DNA from: Sphingomicrobium sp.
Lineage (GTDB): Bacteria; Pseudomonadota; Alphaproteobacteria; Sphingomonadales; Sphingomonadaceae
Assembly: GCA_039929125.1 (NCBI GenBank)
Contig: JBDSRV010000073.1
Span: forward strand, 16,639 to 80,638
DNA length: 64,000 nt
Direction: 5' to 3'
Shown here piece by piece: positions 8,049 through 54,796 of the stretch. The position numbers and the translations under genes were made by a program. How positions within the stretch are numbered: the stretch's first letter is position 1; each line of letters starts with the position of its first letter. Under the pieces are notes generated by a model. The model was given only the letters and a program-made list of their open reading frames with translations, searched no databases and had not been told where the DNA came from.

Positions 8049-10502
8049 GTGAGTCCCGGCGCGCCCTTGCCGATCGACGAGGTCTTGCCCGACTTGCTGG
8101 CCGCGCTGCGCACCGGCCCTCGGGCGCTGCTGGTGGCGCCGCCGGGCGCGGGCAAGACGACCCGGGTTGCCCCGGCCTTGCTCGCCGAGCCTTGGTGCGC
8201 AGGCCAAGTCCTGCTGCTCGTCCCCCGCCGTCTCGCCGCCCGCGCGGCGGCCGAGTTTATGGCGCGCGAGGCCGGCGAAGCGGCGGGCGCCACGATCGGC
8301 TACCAGACACGGCTCGACAGCAAGGTCGGCAAGGCGACGCGGGTCATCGCCATGACCCACGGCGTGTTCCTCGCCCGGCTTCAGGCCGACCCCGAACTGG
8401 CCGGCGTTTCGGCGGTGCTGTTCGACGAGGTCCATGAGCGCAGCCTCGACAACGACCTCGCGCTGGCCCTCGCGCTCGACGCCGCGGCCGAGCTTCGTCC
8501 CGACCTCAGGATCCTCGCCATGTCGGCGACCCTCGACGGGGAGCGGTTCGCGCGCCTGCTCGGCGATCCCCCGCGCATCGTCAGCGAAGGCAAGAGCTTC
8601 CCGCTGACCCTGGTCCAGGCCGGCCGCGACCCGGCGGCGCGGATCGAGCCGCAGATGGCCGCCGCCATCCGCCGCGCGCTCGGCGACCACGACGGCTCCT
8701 TGCTCGCCTTCCTCCCTGGAGTCGCCGAGATCGAGCGTACCGCCGAAGCGCTTGGCGCCCTGCCGCCGGGGGTGGTGTTGCACAAGCTTCACGGCGGCAT
8801 CGACCCCGCCGCCCAGCGCGCCGCGCTGGCCCCACCCGCGCCGGGAACGCGCAAGCTGGTGCTGGCGTCGTCGATCGCCGAGACCAGCCTGACCCTCGAC
8901 GACGTCCGCATCGTCGTCGATTCGGGCCTCGCCCGGCGTCCTCGCTACGAGCGCGGCGCCGGCCTCACCCGACTGGTCACCGAGCGCGCCAGCCGCGCCG
9001 CCGCCACCCAGCGCGCCGGTCGGGCCGCGCGCCAGGGGCCGGGCGTCGCCATCCGTTTGTGGGAGGAAGCCGCCAACGCCGCTTTGCTCGCCCACGACCC
9101 GCCCGAAATCCTCGACGCCGATCTGTCGAGCTTGGCGCTGACCTGCTTGCTGTGGGGCGAGGCCAACGCGGCGCGACTGCCTTTCCTCGATCCGCCGCCC
9201 GCCGCCGCGCTGGCCGAAGCGCGCGAGCGGCTGACCCGGCTCGGCGCGCTCGACGAGGATGGCCGCCTGACCGCCCACGGCCGCGCCATCGCCGCCATCC
9301 CGCTCGACCCGAGCCTCGCCCACATGCTGATCGAGGCAAAGGCTCGCGGCTTCGCCCGGTCCGCCGCCGACGCCGCCGTCCTCCTCACCGAGCGCGGGCT
9401 TGGCGGCAACGACCCCGACCTCGAGCTCCGTCACCGCCGCTGGCACAGCGAACGCGGCCCCCGCGCCGAAGGGGCCAGACGGATGGCCGCGCGCTGGGCA
9501 GGCTCATCGGCCCCTGACGTAAACATAAACCAGAGCCACCTCGATCTTGCCATCGCCCTCGCCTTCCCTGAACGCCTCTCCCGCCGCCGCGATTCATCGG
9601 GCGAGCAGTGGCAATCGGTTGGCGGTCGCGGCTTCCGCCTCGATCCCGCCAGCCCCCTCGCCCGCAGCGAATGGCTGGCGGTGGCCGAAGTCGCCGGCGC
9701 TGCGTCTGGCGCGCGCATCCTGTCCGCCGCGGCGATCACGCTGGGCGACATCGAAAGCCTGTTCGGCGACCGCATCGAGGCGTTCCGCGAGGTGCGCTTC
9801 GACCCCGCCAGCGGCGCGATGACCGCCACGCGCGGCCGCCGCCTCGGCGCCATCCGCCTGTCCTCCGCGCCCGACCCGAAACCCGACGCGGCGGCGATCG
9901 AGGCCGGGTTGATCGAGGCCGTCCGCCGCCACGGCCTCGCCGTCCTGCCATGGCCCGGCAGCGCCGCCGCGCTGCGCCAGCGCGCCGCCTTCGCCAGGGT
10001 TCATGACGATACGATCGAAGACCTATCGGATGCCGCGCTGATCGCCCGCCTCGACCAATGGCTCTCCCCGCTCGTCGCCGGCAAGCGCCGCCTCGACGCG
10101 ATCGACCCCGGCGCCCTCCGCCACGCGCTCGACGCTTTGCTCGGTTATGACGGGCAGCGCGCGGTCGATCGCCTCGCCCCGACCCACTTCACCTCGCCCG
10201 CCGGATCGGCCCACCCGATCGACTATGCCGCGCCCGGCGGCCCGGCCGTCGAAGTCCGCGCCCAGGCGCTATACGGCCTCAAGGCACATCCCATGGTCGG
10301 CGGCGGGCGGGTGCCGCTGACGCTGGCGATCACCTCGCCCGCCCACCGCCCGATCCAGACCACCAGGGATCTTCCCGCTTTCTGGGCCGGCAGCTGGCGC
10401 GACGTCGCCAAGGACATGCGCGGCCGCTACCCCAAGCATCCGTGGCCCGACGACCCCGCCGCCGCCCCGCCGACGCTGAGGACGAAGCGCGCCGGGCCTT
10501 GA
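8049..10502 (+). CDS. hrpB: ATP-dependent helicase HrpB
   Basis: PPGAGKTT, FDEVHER, MSAT, QRAGRAAR; C-terminal FWAGSWRDVAKDMRGRYPKHPWP. Confidence 0.95.
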   Translation: MSPGAPLPIDEVLPDLLAALRTGPRALLVAPPGAGKTTRVAPALLAEPWCAGQVLLLVPRRLAARAAAEFMAREAGEAAGATIGYQTRLDSKVGKATRVIAMTHGVFLARLQADPELAGVSAVLFDEVHERSLDNDLALALALDAAAELRPDLRILAMSATLDGERFARLLGDPPRIVSEGKSFPLTLVQAGRDPAARIEPQMAAAIRRALGDHDGSLLAFLPGVAEIERTAEALGALPPGVVLHKLHGGIDPAAQRAALAPPAPGTRKLVLASSIAETSLTLDDVRIVVDSGLARRPRYERGAGLTRLVTERASRAAATQRAGRAARQGPGVAIRLWEEAANAALLAHDPPEILDADLSSLALTCLLWGEANAARLPFLDPPPAAALAEARERLTRLGALDEDGRLTAHGRAIAAIPLDPSLAHMLIEAKARGFARSAADAAVLLTERGLGGNDPDLELRHRRWHSERGPRAEGARRMAARWAGSSAPDVNINQSHLDLAIALAFPERLSRRRDSSGEQWQSVGGRGFRLDPASPLARSEWLAVAEVAGAASGARILSAAAITLGDIESLFGDRIEAFREVRFDPASGAMTATRGRRLGAIRLSSAPDPKPDAAAIEAGLIEAVRRHGLAVLPWPGSAAALRQRAAFARVHDDTIEDLSDAALIARLDQWLSPLVAGKRRLDAIDPGALRHALDALLGYDGQRAVDRLAPTHFTSPAGSAHPIDYAAPGGPAVEVRAQALYGLKAHPMVGGGRVPLTLAITSPAHRPIQTTRDLPAFWAGSWRDVAKDMRGRYPKHPWPDDPAAAPPTLRTKRAGP

Positions 10503-48386: not shown

Positions 48387-50024
48387 ATGTCTCAGACCAA
48401 GCCCTGGTCGATGGTCCGTGTCGTCACCGCCTCGTCGGCCGGCACCGCGTTCGAATGGTACGACTTCTTCATCTTCGGATCGCTGACCCCGGTCATCGCC
48501 AAAGTGTTCCTGGCGGGCCTCGACCCGAACGCGGCGTTGGTCGCCGCGCTGGCTTTGTTCGCGGTCGGGTTCGCGTTCCGGCCACTGGGCGCGATCATCT
48601 TTGGCGCGATGGGCGACCGCATCGGCCGCAAGGCGACCTTCCTCATCACCGTCAGCCTGATGGGCGGCGCGACCTTCCTCATCGGCCTGCTGCCGACCTA
48701 CGCCCAGGCCGGGATCCTGGCCCCGATCCTGCTGATATTCCTGCGCATCTGCCAGGGCACCGCGCTCGGCGGCGAATATGGCGGCGCGGCGATCTACGTC
48801 GCCGAGCACGCCCCCGACAACCGCCGCGGCACCATGACCGGATGGATCCAGTCGACCGCGTCGTTGGGGCTGCTTGCCGCCTTGCTGATCATCTTCGCCA
48901 CCCGCACCTGGCTTGGCGAGGAAGCCTTCGGCGCCTGGGGCTGGCGCATCCCGTTCCTCGCCTCGGCGGTGTTGCTGGCGATCTCGGTCTACATGCGCGC
49001 CAAGCTCGCCGAGAGCCCCCACTTCGCCCAATTGCGCGAGGAGGGCGCGACCAGCAAGGCGCCGCTGCGCGAGGCGTTCGCCGAGCGCGACAACCTCAAG
49101 CGCGTCCTCACCGCCTTCTTCGCGATCATGTGCGCGCAAGGGGCGGTGTGGTATTTCACCTTCTTCTATCTGCAGGTGTTCCTCGAAAAGTCGCTCGGGC
49201 TGCCCGGCGCGACCAAGGACCTGCTGCTGATCGTCATGACCCTGGTCAGCGCGCCGCTCTACGTCTTCTTCGGCTGGCTTAGCGACCGCGTCGGCAGGAA
49301 GCCGGTGATGCTCGGCGGGATGCTGCTCGCGCTCGCGCTTTACTTCCCCGGCTCGCACTGGATTGCCGAGGCCGCCAACCCGGCGCTGGTCGCCGCGAGC
49401 CAAGCCACCCCGGTCGCGGTCGAGACCGACTCCGCGACCTGCACCAGCCAGTTCGACCCGACCGGCACCGTCAAGTTCACCAGCGCCTGCGACATCGCCA
49501 AGGGCAATCTGGTGATCAAGGGCATCAGCTACACCACCCGCGCCAGCGCGGACGGCACGACGCGCGTCGTCGCCGGCGCGCAGACCGTCCAAGTGGTCGG
49601 CGGCGAGGGCCTGTCAGGCGCGGACCTGAAGGCGCTCAAGGCCAAGACCGGCGAGGCGATCGGCGCCGAGCTTCAGGCCGCGGGCTATCCCAAGGGCGCC
49701 GACCCCAACAAGGCCAAGATGCCGATGCTGATCGCGGTGCTGCTGGCGTTCGTCGTCGCCGCGACCGCGCTCTACGGCCCGCAGGCGGCGGCGCTGGTCG
49801 AGATGTTCCCGACCCGCATCCGCTACACGGCCTTGTCGCTGCCCTATCACCTGGGCACCGGCTGGGTCGGCGGGTTCCTGCCCGTCACCAGCTTCGCGAT
49901 CGTCGCGCTGACGGGGAATATCTACGCCGGCCTGTGGTACGCGGTGGCGTTTACGGCGATCTCGGTGGTGGTGACGGTGGTGTTGCTGAAGGAGACGCGG
50001 GGGCGGCCGTTGGATACGATTTGA
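48387..50024 (+). CDS. MFS transporter (metabolite:H+ symporter family)
   Basis: GTAFEWYDF, FRPLGA, GDRIGRK, GGEYGGA, WGWRIPFL. Confidence 0.93.
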   Translation: MSQTKPWSMVRVVTASSAGTAFEWYDFFIFGSLTPVIAKVFLAGLDPNAALVAALALFAVGFAFRPLGAIIFGAMGDRIGRKATFLITVSLMGGATFLIGLLPTYAQAGILAPILLIFLRICQGTALGGEYGGAAIYVAEHAPDNRRGTMTGWIQSTASLGLLAALLIIFATRTWLGEEAFGAWGWRIPFLASAVLLAISVYMRAKLAESPHFAQLREEGATSKAPLREAFAERDNLKRVLTAFFAIMCAQGAVWYFTFFYLQVFLEKSLGLPGATKDLLLIVMTLVSAPLYVFFGWLSDRVGRKPVMLGGMLLALALYFPGSHWIAEAANPALVAASQATPVAVETDSATCTSQFDPTGTVKFTSACDIAKGNLVIKGISYTTRASADGTTRVVAGAQTVQVVGGEGLSGADLKALKAKTGEAIGAELQAAGYPKGADPNKAKMPMLIAVLLAFVVAATALYGPQAAALVEMFPTRIRYTALSLPYHLGTGWVGGFLPVTSFAIVALTGNIYAGLWYAVAFTAISVVVTVVLLKETRGRPLDTI

Positions 50025-50037
50025 GCATCCTAGCGCG

Positions 50038-50092
50038 AATGTCCGCTTTAGACCCTTAGCGGCCAGTCCACATCCGACCCAAAGCGGGCATT
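50038..50092. repeat. Left palindromic repeat element (two subunits)
   Basis: AATGTCCGCTTT...AAAGCGGGCATT terminal inverted repeat (11/12); first subunit matches the right element at 23/26. Confidence 0.85.
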
Positions 50093-50126
50093 AGCCGATT
50101 GCTATTGAACGATAGATTCCGCATTA

Positions 50127-50152
50127 GGAAAGCCTCAGGAGCACCCGCCGTT
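50127..50152 (+). promoter_or_regulatory. Possible EcfG-type promoter of the receiver pair
   Basis: GGAAA-N17-CGTT, 28 nt before ATG 50181. Confidence 0.35.
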
Positions 50153-50180
50153 GGTCGGTTCAAGTCAGGGGACGCTTTCA

Positions 50181-50582
50181 ATGAAGCCATGTTCGTCCCT
50201 GCCTGGCAAAAACCCATCCCGCGCATGCATACTGGTTGCTGAGGACGAGCTGCTCCTCCGGATGATGATCAGCGACGAACTTCGCGACGCTGGCTATGAC
50301 GTGATCGAGGCATTCAGCGCTGATGAAGCAGCGGCCATATTGCGATCCGGCGCTCAGGTTGACTTGGTCCTTAGCGATGTTCGTATGCCCGGCTCGCTTG
50401 ACGGCTTGGGCCTTCTTACGATCGTAAAAGGAATGTCCCCCGACCTTCCGGTAATTATTATGTCAGCACATCTCCAGCCAAGCCTCGCTGCGTCGGACGG
50501 CGCAGCACAATTCTTAGCTAAGCCCTTCACGATGAGCCGAGTTGTGGAGGCCGTTGGAACCGAGTTATCGAAGATATCATGA
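50181..50582 (+). CDS. Single-domain response regulator
   Basis: LVAEDE, LSDVRMPG, IMSA, LAKPF; all canonical residues present. Confidence 0.88.
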   Translation: MKPCSSLPGKNPSRACILVAEDELLLRMMISDELRDAGYDVIEAFSADEAAAILRSGAQVDLVLSDVRMPGSLDGLGLLTIVKGMSPDLPVIIMSAHLQPSLAASDGAAQFLAKPFTMSRVVEAVGTELSKIS

Positions 50583-50986
50583 CGGCTGAAATTGCTAGCG
50601 GCAAAGTTGCTTCATCGATCTTAATTGTCGATGGCGACATTATCTCGCGGCATGTCATTGCAGATTACCTAAGGCACTGCGGATACAGCGTCGTGGAGGC
50701 TGCCAACGCAGAGGAAGCCTATGCTGGTTTGCAGGAGCCGACCCTCTCGATCGATGTCATCGTATGCGACGTAGCCGGGCTGGGTCCCAAGACCAGCTTC
50801 GAACTGGCAACCTGGGTACGAGCCAATCGTCCTGAGCTGGAGGTTAAGCTCGCCGGTGGCGTTGAGATGGCTGCTCAAACCGCAGCAGACCTTTGCGAGA
50901 ACGGACCCCGTCTAGCGCGGCCGTATGAACCCGAAGCTGTTATTGATTACATCAAACGATTGCGAGCGAGCCGCGACCGCAGCTGA
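50579..50986 (+). CDS. Atypical single-domain response regulator
   Basis: LIVDGD, VIVCD; LAGG replaces the S/T site and ARPY replaces the KP motif. Confidence 0.78.
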   Translation: MTAEIASGKVASSILIVDGDIISRHVIADYLRHCGYSVVEAANAEEAYAGLQEPTLSIDVIVCDVAGLGPKTSFELATWVRANRPELEVKLAGGVEMAAQTAADLCENGPRLARPYEPEAVIDYIKRLRASRDRS

Positions 50987-51200
50987 CCGGTCACTCCTTA
51001 CGGACCTCTTGTGACCCGCAATACCGTTCACCTCCGGCGATTGAAGAAGCGCTTCGAAAGGCTGCCCGCGATTGCAGCCCAGAGGTGTCATGACCGTTTC
51101 CAGGTTTTCGTTGCTCGTTCCGTTGCCGCGGAAGCACTGGACTCTGGACGGACACGAGGCCAATCTGCGCTTAAGTGATTGACGCAAAAGGATTCGTAGC

Positions 51201-51419
51201 ATGCATAGGTTCCAGCTCAAGTGCCAGGAGTGTGGCAACTCCGACTTCACCCTCCCCCAAGACGGAGCTGAAAGCATGCGGATCATTTGCAATAAATGCG
51301 GGACGTTTTTTGCGACGCTCGGTGAGCTCAGGACTGAAATGTCGGGGCAAGCTGCTGTGACCCGTCAGAGCGACATCGATAGCGCGGCCTGGATGAAGCG
51401 AGCGAGGTCTGGAGAGTAA
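51201..51419 (+). CDS. Small CxxC...CxxC putative zinc-binding protein (72 aa)
   Basis: CQEC and CNKC; AGGA upstream. Confidence 0.6.
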   Translation: MHRFQLKCQECGNSDFTLPQDGAESMRIICNKCGTFFATLGELRTEMSGQAAVTRQSDIDSAAWMKRARSGE

Positions 51420-51597
51420 TCAGGCGCTCCGATATTCCCTCTATCAGAGGGATTCCGCACCTTTCGTATAAACTGCGCACTCGTCAGTCCTTATGCGCCT
51501 ACTCCCCGAAGCCGGCCGTCCGCGGCTGCTAAGTGTTTGTTTCTACTTGCTATTGCGCCGCCACCCTCTACCCCTGTTGCGACAACGGGGAAGCAAA

Positions 51598-51807
51598 ATG
51601 ACATTACAGGAAAGCGTTTGGGCATTTCTTATCCAACGCGCCCCGAGACCTATTTGTGACCTTTGTATCTCTGACTACCTGGCAATAAGTCGCCTTCAGG
51701 TCGTTACAGCCGTCAGGTTCGCACAAAGCCGAGGGGCCGACCGCTTTACCGGACGCTGTTCGGGTTGCTGCACTCACCGGAAGGTGTCGGTGTTGTTTCA
51801 GGGCTGA
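51598..51807 (+). CDS. Small CxxC...CxxC putative zinc-binding protein (69 aa)
   Basis: ICDLC and RCSGCC; GGGGAAG upstream of ATG 51598. Confidence 0.55.
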   Translation: MTLQESVWAFLIQRAPRPICDLCISDYLAISRLQVVTAVRFAQSRGADRFTGRCSGCCTHRKVSVLFQG

Positions 51808-51842
51808 CGAGATTTTGCCGCAGCTCGCCCCGCATCGCGTGC

Positions 51843-51874
51843 GACTGTCCGCTTTCCACCCTTAGCGGACACTC
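51843..51874. repeat. Right palindromic repeat element
   Basis: GACTGTCCGCT-N10-AGCGGACACTC. Confidence 0.85.
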
Positions 51875-51995
51875 CCTTCCCCCCATGATCGTCCCCCCGT
51901 TCGTCGGTTGGCGGCGCCTGGGAGTCGATTGGTCGAACCCCGCTGGCCCCGCCCGTTCCAATCGCCAACAGGGCCCGCAAAGGGGTTCATTGTCG

Positions 51996-54080
51996 ATGTC
52001 GACTGCGCGTTTTCACCGCCTGGCGCTGCTCGCCGGGATTGCCTGGCTGATGCCGTTGCCGGCTGTCGCCCAGACGGCGCCCGCCGCTGCGCGGGCGCCC
52101 AAGGCGGCGACGGCCGCCCGCAAAATCTTCACGCCGGCCGATTTCGCCCGCTTCTCGCCGACCACGGCGTTCGACATGCTGGCCAACGTCCCCGGCTTCA
52201 CCATCCAGTCCGCCGACCAGGAGCGCGGGCTTGGCCAGGCGTCGGAGAATGTGCTGATCAACGGGCAGCGCGTCGCCAACAAGTCGGGCGGCGCGATCGA
52301 CCAGTTGCGCAAAGTGGCCGCCGCCAACGTCGAGCGGATCGAGATCGCCGACGCCGCGGGCCTCGGCATCGCCGGCCTGTCGGGCGAAGTCGCCAACGTC
52401 ATCGTCCAGGCCGGCGCCAAGGGCAGCGGCCAGTTCGAATGGCGGCCCCAGTTCCGCATCCATTACGCCCACCCCAACTGGTTCAAGGGATCCGCCAGTT
52501 ATTCCGACAAGGTCGGCCCGGTCGATTACACGATTGGCATCGACAATGGCTCCAACCGCGGCGCCTTTGGTGGCCCGGTCTCGATCTTCGACCCGCTTGG
52601 CACCCGCTTTGAAGTCCGCAACCAGATTTCCACCAGCGATTTCGACCAGCCCAAGATGACCGCCCGGTTCAAGCTCGACGCGCCGGGATCGTCGGTCGCC
52701 AACCTGACGCTCGGCTACGGCCCTTATTGGTACAGCGGCAACACGCTCGAGCGCCGCGTGCGCACCGACGGCGACGATCGGACGCGCCTGACCCGGCAGA
52801 TCCAGAACGGCTATATGGTCGATTTCAACGGCGACTATGAATTCGCCCTCGGGCCGGGCCGGCTGAAGCTGATCGGCCTGCGCCATTTCGAGCATGAGCC
52901 GACCGTCACGACCCAGACCACCACGTTCGACAGCGGCGCCGACGCCCAGGGTATCCGCTTCACCCGCGACGCCCGCATCGGCGAGACCATCGGCCGCGCC
53001 GAATATGGCTTCAGGAGCGGCAAGAACGACTGGCAGCTGACGCTTGAGCGGGCCGACAACAAGCTTGCCCAGCGCGGTCGCCTGTTCGCGCTGTCGCCGT
53101 CGGGCACGTTTAACGAAATGCCGTTCCCCGAAGGCAGCGGCACGGTCGCCGAGACCCGCTACGAAGCCACCGGCACGCTCAGCCGCGCTTTGTCGTCGAA
53201 GCTCGACCTGCAATTGGTCGTGGGGGCCGAGGTGTCGAAGCTCGACCGCGTCGACGGCGACTTGCCGCCGCGCAAATTCTTCCGTCCCAAGGGCAGCCTG
53301 ACGCTCGGCTGGCGCCCGGCCAAGGGGTGGGACGCCAGCTTCAAGCTGCGCCGCCGGGTCGGGCAGATCAGTTTCTACGACTTCCTCGCCCAGCCCAATC
53401 TGCAGCAGGACCGCGAGAATAGCGGCAACCCCGACCTCGTCCCGCCGCAGAGCTGGGAGGCCGAGCTTGAGGCCGGCCGCGACCTTGGCGCGTGGGGCAA
53501 GACCCGGCTGAAGGTCTACGGCCACCGCATCGACGACATCATCGACATCATCCCCATCGGCGACGATGGCGAAGCGGTCGGCAACCTGCCCCGCGCGACC
53601 CGTTTTGGCCTGGTCTCGACCAGCACCATCCAGTTCGACCCGATCGGCTGGCGCGGGGCCAAGCTCGACCTCACCGTCGAAGCGTTGCAGACCAGCGTCC
53701 GCGATCCGCTGACCGGCCGCAAGCGCTCGATCAGCGACACGCAGGACCGCTCGGTCCAGCTATCGCTGCGCGACGACATTCCGCACAGCAAGATCGCCTG
53801 GGGCGCCGAGGTCAACTACAGCCACAACGGCAAAAGCTATTTCCTCAGCGAGATCGGGCGCGGTTGGGAAGGCCCGGTGTTTGCCAACCTCTACGTCGAG
53901 CACAAGGACGTATTCGGGTTCGACGTGACCTTGATCGCCGCCAATTTGCTCAACGCCCGCCACCATTTCAACCGCACGGTTTACGACGGCCGCCGGGAGC
54001 GCGACCCGGTGCGGTTCAGGCAGACGAGCGACGGGCTGATCGGGCCGATCTTCGCGGTCAAGGTCAAGGGCAGCTTCTAA
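51996..54080 (+). CDS. TonB-dependent receptor
   Basis: Signal peptide from ATG 51996, AFDMLANVPGF plug, GNPDLVP, NLLN, terminal GSF. Confidence 0.88.
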   Translation: MSTARFHRLALLAGIAWLMPLPAVAQTAPAAARAPKAATAARKIFTPADFARFSPTTAFDMLANVPGFTIQSADQERGLGQASENVLINGQRVANKSGGAIDQLRKVAAANVERIEIADAAGLGIAGLSGEVANVIVQAGAKGSGQFEWRPQFRIHYAHPNWFKGSASYSDKVGPVDYTIGIDNGSNRGAFGGPVSIFDPLGTRFEVRNQISTSDFDQPKMTARFKLDAPGSSVANLTLGYGPYWYSGNTLERRVRTDGDDRTRLTRQIQNGYMVDFNGDYEFALGPGRLKLIGLRHFEHEPTVTTQTTTFDSGADAQGIRFTRDARIGETIGRAEYGFRSGKNDWQLTLERADNKLAQRGRLFALSPSGTFNEMPFPEGSGTVAETRYEATGTLSRALSSKLDLQLVVGAEVSKLDRVDGDLPPRKFFRPKGSLTLGWRPAKGWDASFKLRRRVGQISFYDFLAQPNLQQDRENSGNPDLVPPQSWEAELEAGRDLGAWGKTRLKVYGHRIDDIIDIIPIGDDGEAVGNLPRATRFGLVSTSTIQFDPIGWRGAKLDLTVEALQTSVRDPLTGRKRSISDTQDRSVQLSLRDDIPHSKIAWGAEVNYSHNGKSYFLSEIGRGWEGPVFANLYVEHKDVFGFDVTLIAANLLNARHHFNRTVYDGRRERDPVRFRQTSDGLIGPIFAVKVKGSF

Positions 54081-54094
54081 GCCGCCCCGGCCGC

Positions 54095-54796
54095 TCACGC
54101 CCGCCAGTGGATGTCGATCGGCTGGTCGCACTCGGCCAGCAGGCGGCCGATCGGCAGCTTGCTGCTCTGGCCGTCCGCGATCGCCTGTTCGATGGCCTCG
54201 CGCTTCTTCTGCCCGGTGATGGCGATCAGGATCGTCCGCGCCGACAGGATCGCGGCCCGGGTCAGCGTCACGCGCGCCACCGGCGCATTGGCCGGCAGCG
54301 GGTCGGGCATGACGCCGACCGCGCGGCGGGCCTTGGGCGCGTTCATCGCATCCTCAAGGTCGGGCCCGGGGAACAGCGACGCGGTATGCCCGTCCTCGCC
54401 CATGCCGAGCCAGACGAGGTCGGGCGGCCACGGCAGGTCCTGCAGCCGGGCGTCCGCGCCATTGCCCGCCAGCCGGTAATCGGGAATGTCCGCGGCGATC
54501 GGGAAGATCCGCGCACCGGTCTTGATGAAATGGCTGGCGATCAGGCGTATGTTACTGAGTTCGCTATCCATTTTGACCAGCCGGTCGTCGGTCGGGATGA
54601 TCGTCACGCGCTTCCAGTCGAGCTTCATTTGCGCGAGCTTGGCGAAGATCGGCCCCGGCGTTTCGCCGCCCGGCAGCGCGATCAGCGCGGCGCCGCGCGC
54701 CTCGATCGCGCTGTCGACGATGAAGCCGACATCGCCCGCCACCGCGTCCGCCATCTCCTCGGCGCTGTCATAATCCCAAAATTCCGCTTCAATCAT
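54095..54796 (-). CDS. pgl: 6-phosphogluconolactonase
   Basis: LPGGETP, PTDDR, LGMGEDGHTASLFP. Confidence 0.93.
   Translation of the reverse strand: MIEAEFWDYDSAEEMADAVAGDVGFIVDSAIEARGAALIALPGGETPGPIFAKLAQMKLDWKRVTIIPTDDRLVKMDSELSNIRLIASHFIKTGARIFPIAADIPDYRLAGNGADARLQDLPWPPDLVWLGMGEDGHTASLFPGPDLEDAMNAPKARRAVGVMPDPLPANAPVARVTLTRAAILSARTILIAITGQKKREAIEQAIADGQSSKLPIGRLLAECDQPIDIHWRA

Follow-up and report, generated by a model that had tools for sequence, protein, structure and literature searches.

A family of palindromic repeats bounding exchangeable gene cassettes in Sphingomicrobium and other Alphaproteobacteria, with a candidate minimal recombinase

Integrons are the textbook bacterial route for stockpiling and shuffling single genes. 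Another well-known principle is found in recombination sites of the lox and FRT type, in which the asymmetry of the spacer sets the direction of the reaction, direct sites leading to excision or integration and inverted sites to inversion; to our knowledge, none of the systems Cre/loxP, FLP/FRT and FimB/FimE captures arrays of host genes. A survey of 243 alphaproteobacterial genomes detected no integrons, In0 or clusters of attC sites without an integrase (CALINs), a result called "extremely puzzling" by its authors (Cury et al. 2016, PMC4889954). Here, we analysed a stretch of 64,000 nucleotides from Sphingomicrobium sp. (assembly GCA_039929125.1, contig JBDSRV010000073.1, positions 16,639 to 80,638; called the window below), in which an AT-richer block lies between two palindromic direct repeats. 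As judged from genome comparisons, compact and unrelated AT-richer genes are strung into integron-like arrays between copies of this repeat in many soil Alphaproteobacteria. All evidence presented is computational, and many of the compared genomes are metagenome-assembled genomes (MAGs); the host assembly itself (G000) comprises 1.98 Mb in 73 contigs at about 91% completeness and 67.5% GC, the window being part of its contig C73.

A sequence-only reading of the window had proposed that the block is bounded by two direct 26-mers, identical at 23 of 26 positions and each palindromic. Both were located on the same strand, the left one at 50040–50065 (TGTCCGCTTTAGACCCTTAGCGGCCA) and the right one at 51846–51871 (TGTCCGCTTTCCACCCTTAGCGGACA), and 0 matches of this kind appeared in shuffled windows. 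A hairpin is predicted for each copy (z-scores of −4.4 to −9 for DNA folding). The left 26-mer is the core of a 34-nt palindromic site (R1, 50031–50066, plus strand) with the unusual centre AGACCC, which is directly followed on its 3' side by a degenerate tandem copy (R2, 50066–50101, plus strand, GTCCACATCCGACCCAAAGCGGGCATTAG; nhmmer E = 8e-4). The outer arms of R1 and R2 match each other (TGTCCGCTTT...AAAGCGGGCA), and together both copies make up the previously suspected 55-bp two-subunit element with its own terminal inverted repeat, for which a joint hairpin is predicted. The right joint (51840–51874, plus strand) contains the centre CCACCC. Between the joints, the GC content falls to 0.562 (50102–51839), compared to 0.680 and 0.673 in the flanks, and the GC content at third codon positions (GC3) of the four enclosed open reading frames (ORFs) is 0.56–0.68, compared to 0.94 for the preceding MFS transporter gene and 0.89 for the following TonB-dependent receptor gene, which agrees with the proposed restriction of AT-richer codon usage to the block. 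Neither the ORF list nor a Pfam search revealed a recombinase gene within or adjoining the block, as had been suggested, and a motif search of all three window copies found no GTTRRRY or RYYYAAC boxes.

The two repeats of the window very probably delimit an exchangeable unit. The closest relative, labelled Sphingomonas sp. OTE_38_metabat_150 (G349), possesses flanks which are 90–92% identical to those of the window, and the homology includes the MFS gene and the left repeat up to position 50065 and resumes at 51893. Between these flanks, G349 contains a full repeat and an unrelated segment of 0.35 kb, whose only ORF is small and lipoprotein-like; next comes a half repeat consisting of left arm and centre, which is joined to the upstream region of the receptor gene and located at the same place as the right joint of the window. 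From this alignment, window and relative share a common frame of MFS gene, repeat, cassette, repeat and receptor gene, with differing cassettes. Similar exchanges were seen at other loci, namely between the host contig C56 and locus L111 and between loci L114 and L129, where the outermost repeat is kept together with the flanks, and the cassettes differ in number and identity. The DNA of the block itself yielded a single weak match among 300 genomes of the family, which was to a pair of response regulator genes. The response regulator pair of the block (RR1 and RR2) is also present in another Sphingomicrobium MAG (L244/L245) between a cold-shock gene and a ubiA/cox cluster, where it is again embedded in low-GC DNA with a direct copy of the repeat on either side. 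RR2 has 656 homologues, many of them 70–81% identical. Within Sphingomonadales, these two overlapping genes for receiver-only response regulators are widespread and occur in at least three different neighbourhoods (L242–L247).

The ends of BLAST alignments alone failed to place the breakpoints, because high-scoring alignments continue across the similar repeats, and we inspected a duplicated cassette instead. The genome G371 contains two 100%-identical copies of a cassette of ~1.0 kb on separate contigs. Their identity begins within the 6-bp centre of one repeat and ends exactly where the centre of the following repeat meets its arm, and the outer arms differ. In the same manner, loci L117 and L155 have a common cassette which begins at the repeat centre and carries an unusual variant of the right arm, and the left arms differ. 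Comparison of these genomes shows swaps that occur at the repeats and apparent breakpoints that lie at the centre of the site.

The joints belong to a repeat family with the consensus AATGTCCGCTTT-CSACCC-AWWGCGGACATT, which consists of units of 30–34 nt with a fully paired stem of 11–14 bp. Direct doublets spaced 26–49 nt apart are frequent and reach ~60 nt, corresponding to two units. From 275 strong copies (loci L051–L170), we derived the consensus gcnAATGTCCGCTTT-C[G/C]ACCC-A[T/A][T/A]GCGGACATTaG with the termini AATG...CATT. In this sample, whose anchoring on the search pattern partly builds in the conservation of the core, the 6-bp centre is conserved like the arms (1.9–2.0 bits), except for one position occupied by G in 137 and C in 136 copies. 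A centre as conserved as the arms points to recognition by a protein and matching of the spacers rather than to a plain hairpin. Directly after the centre stands either AAA, paired with the TTT of the left arm, or the unpaired ATT, and these variants may define classes of site compatibility together with the G/C split at the second base of the centre. In both the window and G349, the left joint carries the centre xGACCC and the right joint CCACCC. Spurious ORFs of the "SAFDPKRT" type we take to be translated copies of the repeat.

A profile made from the clearest copies of the host genome detected ~20–22 copies on its contigs. Most of these have at least one 500-bp flank with a GC content of ≤0.60, a value reached by only 2.8% of the 500-bp windows of the genome. 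A direct pair on contig C36 (positions 3916/4282) surrounds a single low-GC ORF of 103 amino acids. Another low-GC segment of 0.8 kb lies between direct copies on contig C37 (8878–9722, copies at 8878/9679) without a convincing ORF; it is located between mnmA-like and FKBP-like genes and could represent a cassette devoid of ORFs or encode a non-coding RNA. The third direct pair encloses a short low-GC segment on contig C2 (33013/33418). Several copies of the repeat are also found in a 19-kb low-GC island on contig C6 (1–19300, GC 0.55–0.63), which contains NnrS-, NsrR- and nitric-oxide-reductase-like genes. The orientation of the copies was compared with GC skew, and the TCCGCTTTCSACCC strand coincides with the C-rich strand at 10 of 13 loci of the host (p = 0.046); public loci show only a weak tendency of this kind (27 of 46, p = 0.15).

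Public loci were picked through identity to a single copy, searched as the 28-mer ATGTCCGCTTTCSACCCWWWGCGGACAT, which occurs at no fewer than 120 loci when one genome per species is searched. Its hosts belong to Sphingomonas, Sphingomicrobium, Allosphingosinicella, Croceibacterium, Caulobacter, Brevundimonas, Lysobacter, Noviluteimonas, Dyella, Stenotrophomonas and several MAGs of beta- and other proteobacteria, the orders including Sphingomonadales, Caulobacterales and some Xanthomonadales. Among 301 genomes sampled evenly from the family, 102 contain at least one copy and 20 contain at least five, and copy numbers reach up to ~120 per genome.

The arrays themselves were analysed at 120 of these public loci. 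Adjacent copies are co-oriented in 285 of 299 pairs (p = 8e-67) and inverted in the remaining 14, and the units between them have a median length of 543 bp (interquartile range 387–1007). Each unit is nearly filled by one ORF, leaving ~26–31 nt upstream of its start and ~10 nt downstream of its stop codon as spacing to the repeats. Of these ORFs, 105 share the direction of the repeat and 60 (36%) oppose it, and both directions are often mixed in one array. Genes of diverse and unrelated function are enclosed: among 148 cassette ORFs, Pfam matches extend over 60 families with one or two occurrences each, including GNAT acetyltransferases, the immunity protein Imm53, ArsC, HIT, cupins and domains of unknown function (DUFs). 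Cassette DNA has a GC content of 0.590, compared to 0.646 in DNA more than 1.5 kb away from any repeat. The isolate Caulobacter sp. 17J80-11 carries ~40 copies within 25 kb in two blocks facing each other, and in the single-contig genome of Sphingomonas daechungensis the orientation of the repeats switches about nine times. Across these genomes, the comparison shows one repeat family and its arrays.

Clustering of the ORFs from the same loci yielded one recurrent enzyme of ~200 amino acids, which consists of a tyrosine-recombinase catalytic domain only (PF00589, 2.2e-18) and whose nearest solved relative in the Protein Data Bank is the catalytic domain of XerD (E = 3e-6). By inspection, the predicted catalytic motifs R..K..HxxR..H..Y correspond to RGCD, the lysine in RKTGRP, HSMRRT, LLGH and VRYL. 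The short integrase family as a whole was rejected as the cognate enzyme; it showed no enrichment, being present in 7 of the 20 repeat-rich genomes versus 92 of 301 overall. In a phylogenetic tree, the short recombinases fall into two groups (clades A and B), which are separated by a long, well-supported branch, and an association with the repeat emerged only at the level of these clades.

Clade A comprises 7 sequences of the tree, of which 6 have a clear flanking repeat; the remaining one (L178, genome G055) is accompanied only by weaker, diverged copies in the same layout. Its loci were found in S. daechungensis, with two full genes and one fragment, in the genomes G297, G055, G370, G371 and G346, and in Sphingosinicella and Lysobacter. 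Clade-A genes of S. daechungensis JCM 17887 are located at 1,743,248–1,743,814 and 1,872,966–1,873,532. In at least 12 of 12 examined loci, the copies on one side of the gene are in plus and those on the other side in minus orientation, whatever the direction of the gene itself. Given the 14 inverted pairs among 299, the chance of this mirrored layout is ~1e-16. In S. daechungensis, both full clade-A genes are located exactly at two of the switches from plus to minus, and the genome with the fresh duplicate, G371, also has a clade-A gene. Including one intermediate sequence, 3 of the 20 repeat-rich genomes contain clade A, compared to 0 of the other 281 (301-genome sample, Fisher p = 2.5e-4). 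Genome comparison shows a fixed position of one recombinase clade, from which its role as the partner of the repeat is predicted. Two of the loci (L221, G297:C1:1661000–1680999; L222, G055:C57:118000–137999) contain the clade-A gene and the mirrored arrays inside larger islands, which also carry genes for a P4-type integrase or AlpA-like excisionases, and the arrays may travel on such integrative elements. A collection of plasmids contained no member of clade A and almost no repeats; the short integrase family is common there and annotated only as "tyrosine-type recombinase/integrase".

Clade B contains 28 sequences, of which 25 have no repeat in their vicinity, and includes the only short recombinase of the host genome (C6:17120–17704, minus strand). 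The latter was dropped as the cognate enzyme because it belongs to clade B, a group not associated with the repeat. The flanks of clade-B integrase genes show hairpins of their own, and the repeat analysed here is absent from them. About 30% of the genomes of the family possess clade-B genes (L181–L207), which are also frequent on alphaproteobacterial and enterobacterial plasmids. Their ribosome-binding site is covered by a conserved hairpin, another hairpin resembling a terminator follows the stop codon, and several of the genes are pseudogenes.

We propose that the block 50066–51845 would be one gene cassette, possibly two fused ones, placed by conservative site-specific recombination, and that the flanking palindromes would be hybrid joints left by its insertion. 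The site would possess a core of the lox or dif type, with two inverted arms of ~12–14 bp around the asymmetric 6-bp centre (CSACCC) as the point of strand exchange. A circular cassette with one site would recombine with a resident site and thereby come to lie between two direct copies, and repeated insertion would lead to co-oriented arrays. The catalyst would be the clade-A recombinase, itself situated between two inverted sites, and genomes without the recombinase would retain inert arrays and lone cassettes. We infer the action of the recombinase on the sites, the circular intermediate and the chemistry of the reaction. The earlier suggestion of hairpins acting as recombination-type joints for an enzyme provided in trans gains support from the swap in G349, the arrays, the duplicate in G371, the response regulator pair in L244 and the position of clade A.

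We consider it rather probable that the block of the window is a cassette of this type. Since the host assembly contains no clade-A recombinase, this cassette is probably an orphan, a stranded relic like the attC clusters without integrase. The more general proposition is that Sphingomonadales, Caulobacterales and some Xanthomonadales own an equivalent of the integron, consisting of a minimal tyrosine recombinase of ~200 amino acids between inverted sites, circular cassettes captured and released at a lox-like site of 34 bp, mirrored arrays on both sides and orphans seeded over the chromosome; here, we see the chances for and against as evenly balanced.

Several observations weigh against this interpretation. 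Clade A is missing in most genomes that carry the repeat, namely in 17 of the 20 richest, the Caulobacter isolate, the host assembly and G349. The joints of the window differ in their centres (AGACCC or CGACCC vs. CCACCC), which would hinder re-excision. An empty site with a single repeat, as expected by the sequence-only reading, was not found among the relatives at the junction of MFS and receptor genes; G349 has both repeats with a different insert, and more distant relatives lack both the repeats and the receptor. In four of these, the MFS gene abuts the next conserved gene (54095–54796 in the window) with a gap of 17–70 nt and no repeat, which leaves the arrival of the first site unexplained. 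The receptor gene is absent from the junction in more distant members of the genus and is itself part of a variable stretch. Breakpoints were deduced from one perfect duplicate and three or four noisier comparisons, and this evidence is weakened by the fact that similar edges are possible from short-homology recombination between repeats. Genes in the arrays were called by a simple rule of GC content by codon position, and these calls are approximate. Finally, many copies in the host genome are singletons and direct doublets are frequent, which is more reminiscent of repetitive extragenic palindromic (REP) sequences or miniature inverted-repeat transposable elements (MITEs).

The repeats might accordingly be selfish palindromes resembling REP or MITE elements, i.e., a self-multiplying element of 34 nt which settles in tolerant, AT-richer accessory DNA, would coincide with island borders only as places of its survival, and owes its orientation to replication-linked insertion. 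We regard this as unlikely, even if it would account for the dispersed and often single copies and the tandem doublets of the host, the general vicinity of low-GC DNA, the tendency of the orientation to track GC skew (10/13 and 27/46 loci) and the many repeat-carrying genomes without a dedicated recombinase. Its enzyme is not apparent: the Y1 transposase domain (Y1_Tnp, PF01797) is absent in the host genome and in 7 of 8 repeat-rich genomes, and in the only positive genome it does not lie near the repeats. An enzyme of the RAYT (REP-associated tyrosine transposase) or HUH type, the latter considered in the sequence-only reading, was rejected for this reason. Moreover, neighbouring copies are direct, unlike the inverted pairs typical of REPINs, and their local co-orientation of 95% is far higher than a replication bias of ~60% would yield, the arrays of S. 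daechungensis switching repeatedly within one genome. A replication-direction rule was tried for the orientation and abandoned, because the weak trend is insufficient for this degree of co-orientation. In close relatives, genes vary between kept repeats, not repeats between kept genes, and in G371 a whole gene has moved with half-sites at both ends.

It is still less likely that the repeats are passive joints without an enzyme of their own and that the variable blocks are exchanged by ordinary homologous recombination in the flanking genes or between the short repeats as portable homology. The region following the MFS gene would suit such an explanation, because its contents up to the next conserved gene differ wholly across the genus, as is typical for flexible islets replaced via flank homology: in other members (L037–L046 set), this gap contains edd-glk-eda, genes for a different TonB-dependent receptor and a sulfotransferase-like protein, genes for a glycosyltransferase and an L,D-transpeptidase-like protein, or one for an outer-membrane protein. 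BLAST homology between loci also spans whole repeats. Yet ~30 nt equal the usual minimum length for RecA-dependent recombination or fall short of it, and passive joints would leave unexplained the 95% co-orientation, the near-invariant asymmetric centre with the breakpoints inside it in the 100%-identical duplicate, and the fixed place of one recombinase clade between mirrored arrays. A function at the RNA level, with the hairpin as a 3'-end stabiliser, processing site or terminator that is co-oriented via the neighbouring genes, would fit the stable stem, its position ~10 nt after stop codons and the modest excess of co-oriented ORFs (105 vs. 60), but is very improbable in view of the ORFs that oppose constantly co-oriented repeats in arrays of mixed gene direction, the lack of a T-run after the stem, a loop conserved like the stem with little compensatory change, and the unexplained cassette swaps and link to a recombinase.

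Returning to the proposed site-specific recombination in the window, the conserved left flank of the block is formed by the MFS transporter gene (48387–50024, plus strand; Pfam Sugar_tr/MFS_1), whose orthologues are 66–81% identical across the genus and whose nucleotide identity to the closest relative is 92%; R1 begins 15 nt past its stop codon. All four genes of the cassette are encoded on the plus strand. The first, RR1 (50151–50582, GC3 0.59), codes for a receiver-only response regulator (Pfam Response_reg, 1.2e-19), and its stop codon is overlapped by the start of RR2 (50579–50986), which codes for a divergent receiver-domain protein matching Response_reg at 29.3 bits, slightly below the cut-off. 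They are followed by a predicted 72-amino-acid zinc-ribbon-like ORF with a CxxC...CxxC pattern (51201–51419, GC3 0.68), which shows weak Pfam zinc-ribbon matches below the cut-off, and by a predicted Cys-rich ORF of 69 amino acids without a Pfam match (51598–51807, GC3 0.56). Between the second and third genes, a putative decayed copy of the site (51064–51095, plus strand) was recognised by inspection of an alignment only and missed by the profile search; it agrees with the consensus at ~19 of 30 positions with 2 indels and is aligned with the position of the right-hand repeat in L244. If real, this copy would weakly suggest that the block consists of two fused cassettes. The right copy is located 125 nt upstream of the TonB-dependent receptor gene (51996–54080, plus strand; Pfam Plug domain), which forms the right flank.

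If the proposed system is true, it would give a concrete and testable answer to the integron gap in Alphaproteobacteria, reveal a large pool of small accessory genes invisible to current integron finders and explain many of the short AT-richer islets in high-GC Alphaproteobacteria from soil and water. The repeat is a simple annotation marker of exchangeable DNA, and a compact recombinase together with its 34-bp site might serve as a genetic tool. We found no description of the repeat sequence, of such arrays or of such a gene-capture system in the literature; the nearest known systems are compared below.

Xer modules, such as the pdif modules of Acinetobacter plasmids and the integrative mobile elements exploiting Xer (IMEX), similarly consist of modules between tyrosine-recombinase sites of the arm-6 bp-arm type in varied contexts. 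In contrast to the inverted XerC/XerD order of pdif module sites, the sites described here are direct, and they form chromosomal arrays of many units which are linked to a dedicated clade of short recombinases rather than to the housekeeping XerCD. By inspection against the dif consensus, the arms appear not to be similar to dif or XerD arms. The organisation of the site in two arms of 13–14 bp around an asymmetric spacer, with ~34 bp in total, resembles those of Cre/loxP and FLP/FRT, and the candidate enzyme is similar in size to FimB/FimE (~200 amino acids), but there is no sequence relation to any of these enzymes beyond the common tyrosine-recombinase fold. REP/RAYT systems (REPINs) also consist of short extragenic palindromes with tens to ~100 copies per genome and an enzyme gene bracketed by inverted copies. 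Here, however, the gene between the inverted copies codes for a tyrosine recombinase (PF00589) instead of an HUH/Y1 enzyme, the doublets are direct instead of inverted, no GTAG-type head was seen, and the repeats delimit exchangeable genes.

Similarity also exists with integrons, especially sedentary chromosomal ones, and CALINs, in which imperfect, co-oriented palindromes separate compact, unrelated, mostly single-gene units, whose functions are for the most part unknown. In both cases, the cassettes include GNAT acetyltransferases and immunity proteins, the content varies between close relatives, and a tyrosine recombinase is located at the array; as in the case of CALINs, many arrays occur in genomes without the recombinase (Cury et al. 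2016, PMC4889954). A classical integron was ruled out, because the integron integrase IntI (TIGR02249) was detected in none of 16 genomes, including the host and the richest ones, where the best score of 87 bits is at the level of Xer proteins versus a cut-off of 265, and the attC boxes are absent in the window copies. The earlier notion of an integron-like arrangement lacking the GTTRRRY core is consistent with both results. The candidate enzyme differs from IntI by its size of ~200 amino acids and by consisting of the catalytic domain only, without an N-terminal domain or the IntI-specific insert. The site is 34 bp long, almost perfectly paired and devoid of R''/R' boxes (RYYYAAC/GTTRRRY), whereas attC sites comprise 55–140 bp with extrahelical bases, and the apparent breakpoint lies in the middle of the site instead of at one end. 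Furthermore, the recombinase gene is situated between two mirrored arrays rather than heading a single one, arrays and lone cassettes are scattered over the chromosome, and the hosts are mainly Alphaproteobacteria. We read the system as an integron-like capture platform built from different parts, which would add to the known platforms for the capture of gene cassettes a site of its own and a candidate minimal recombinase.

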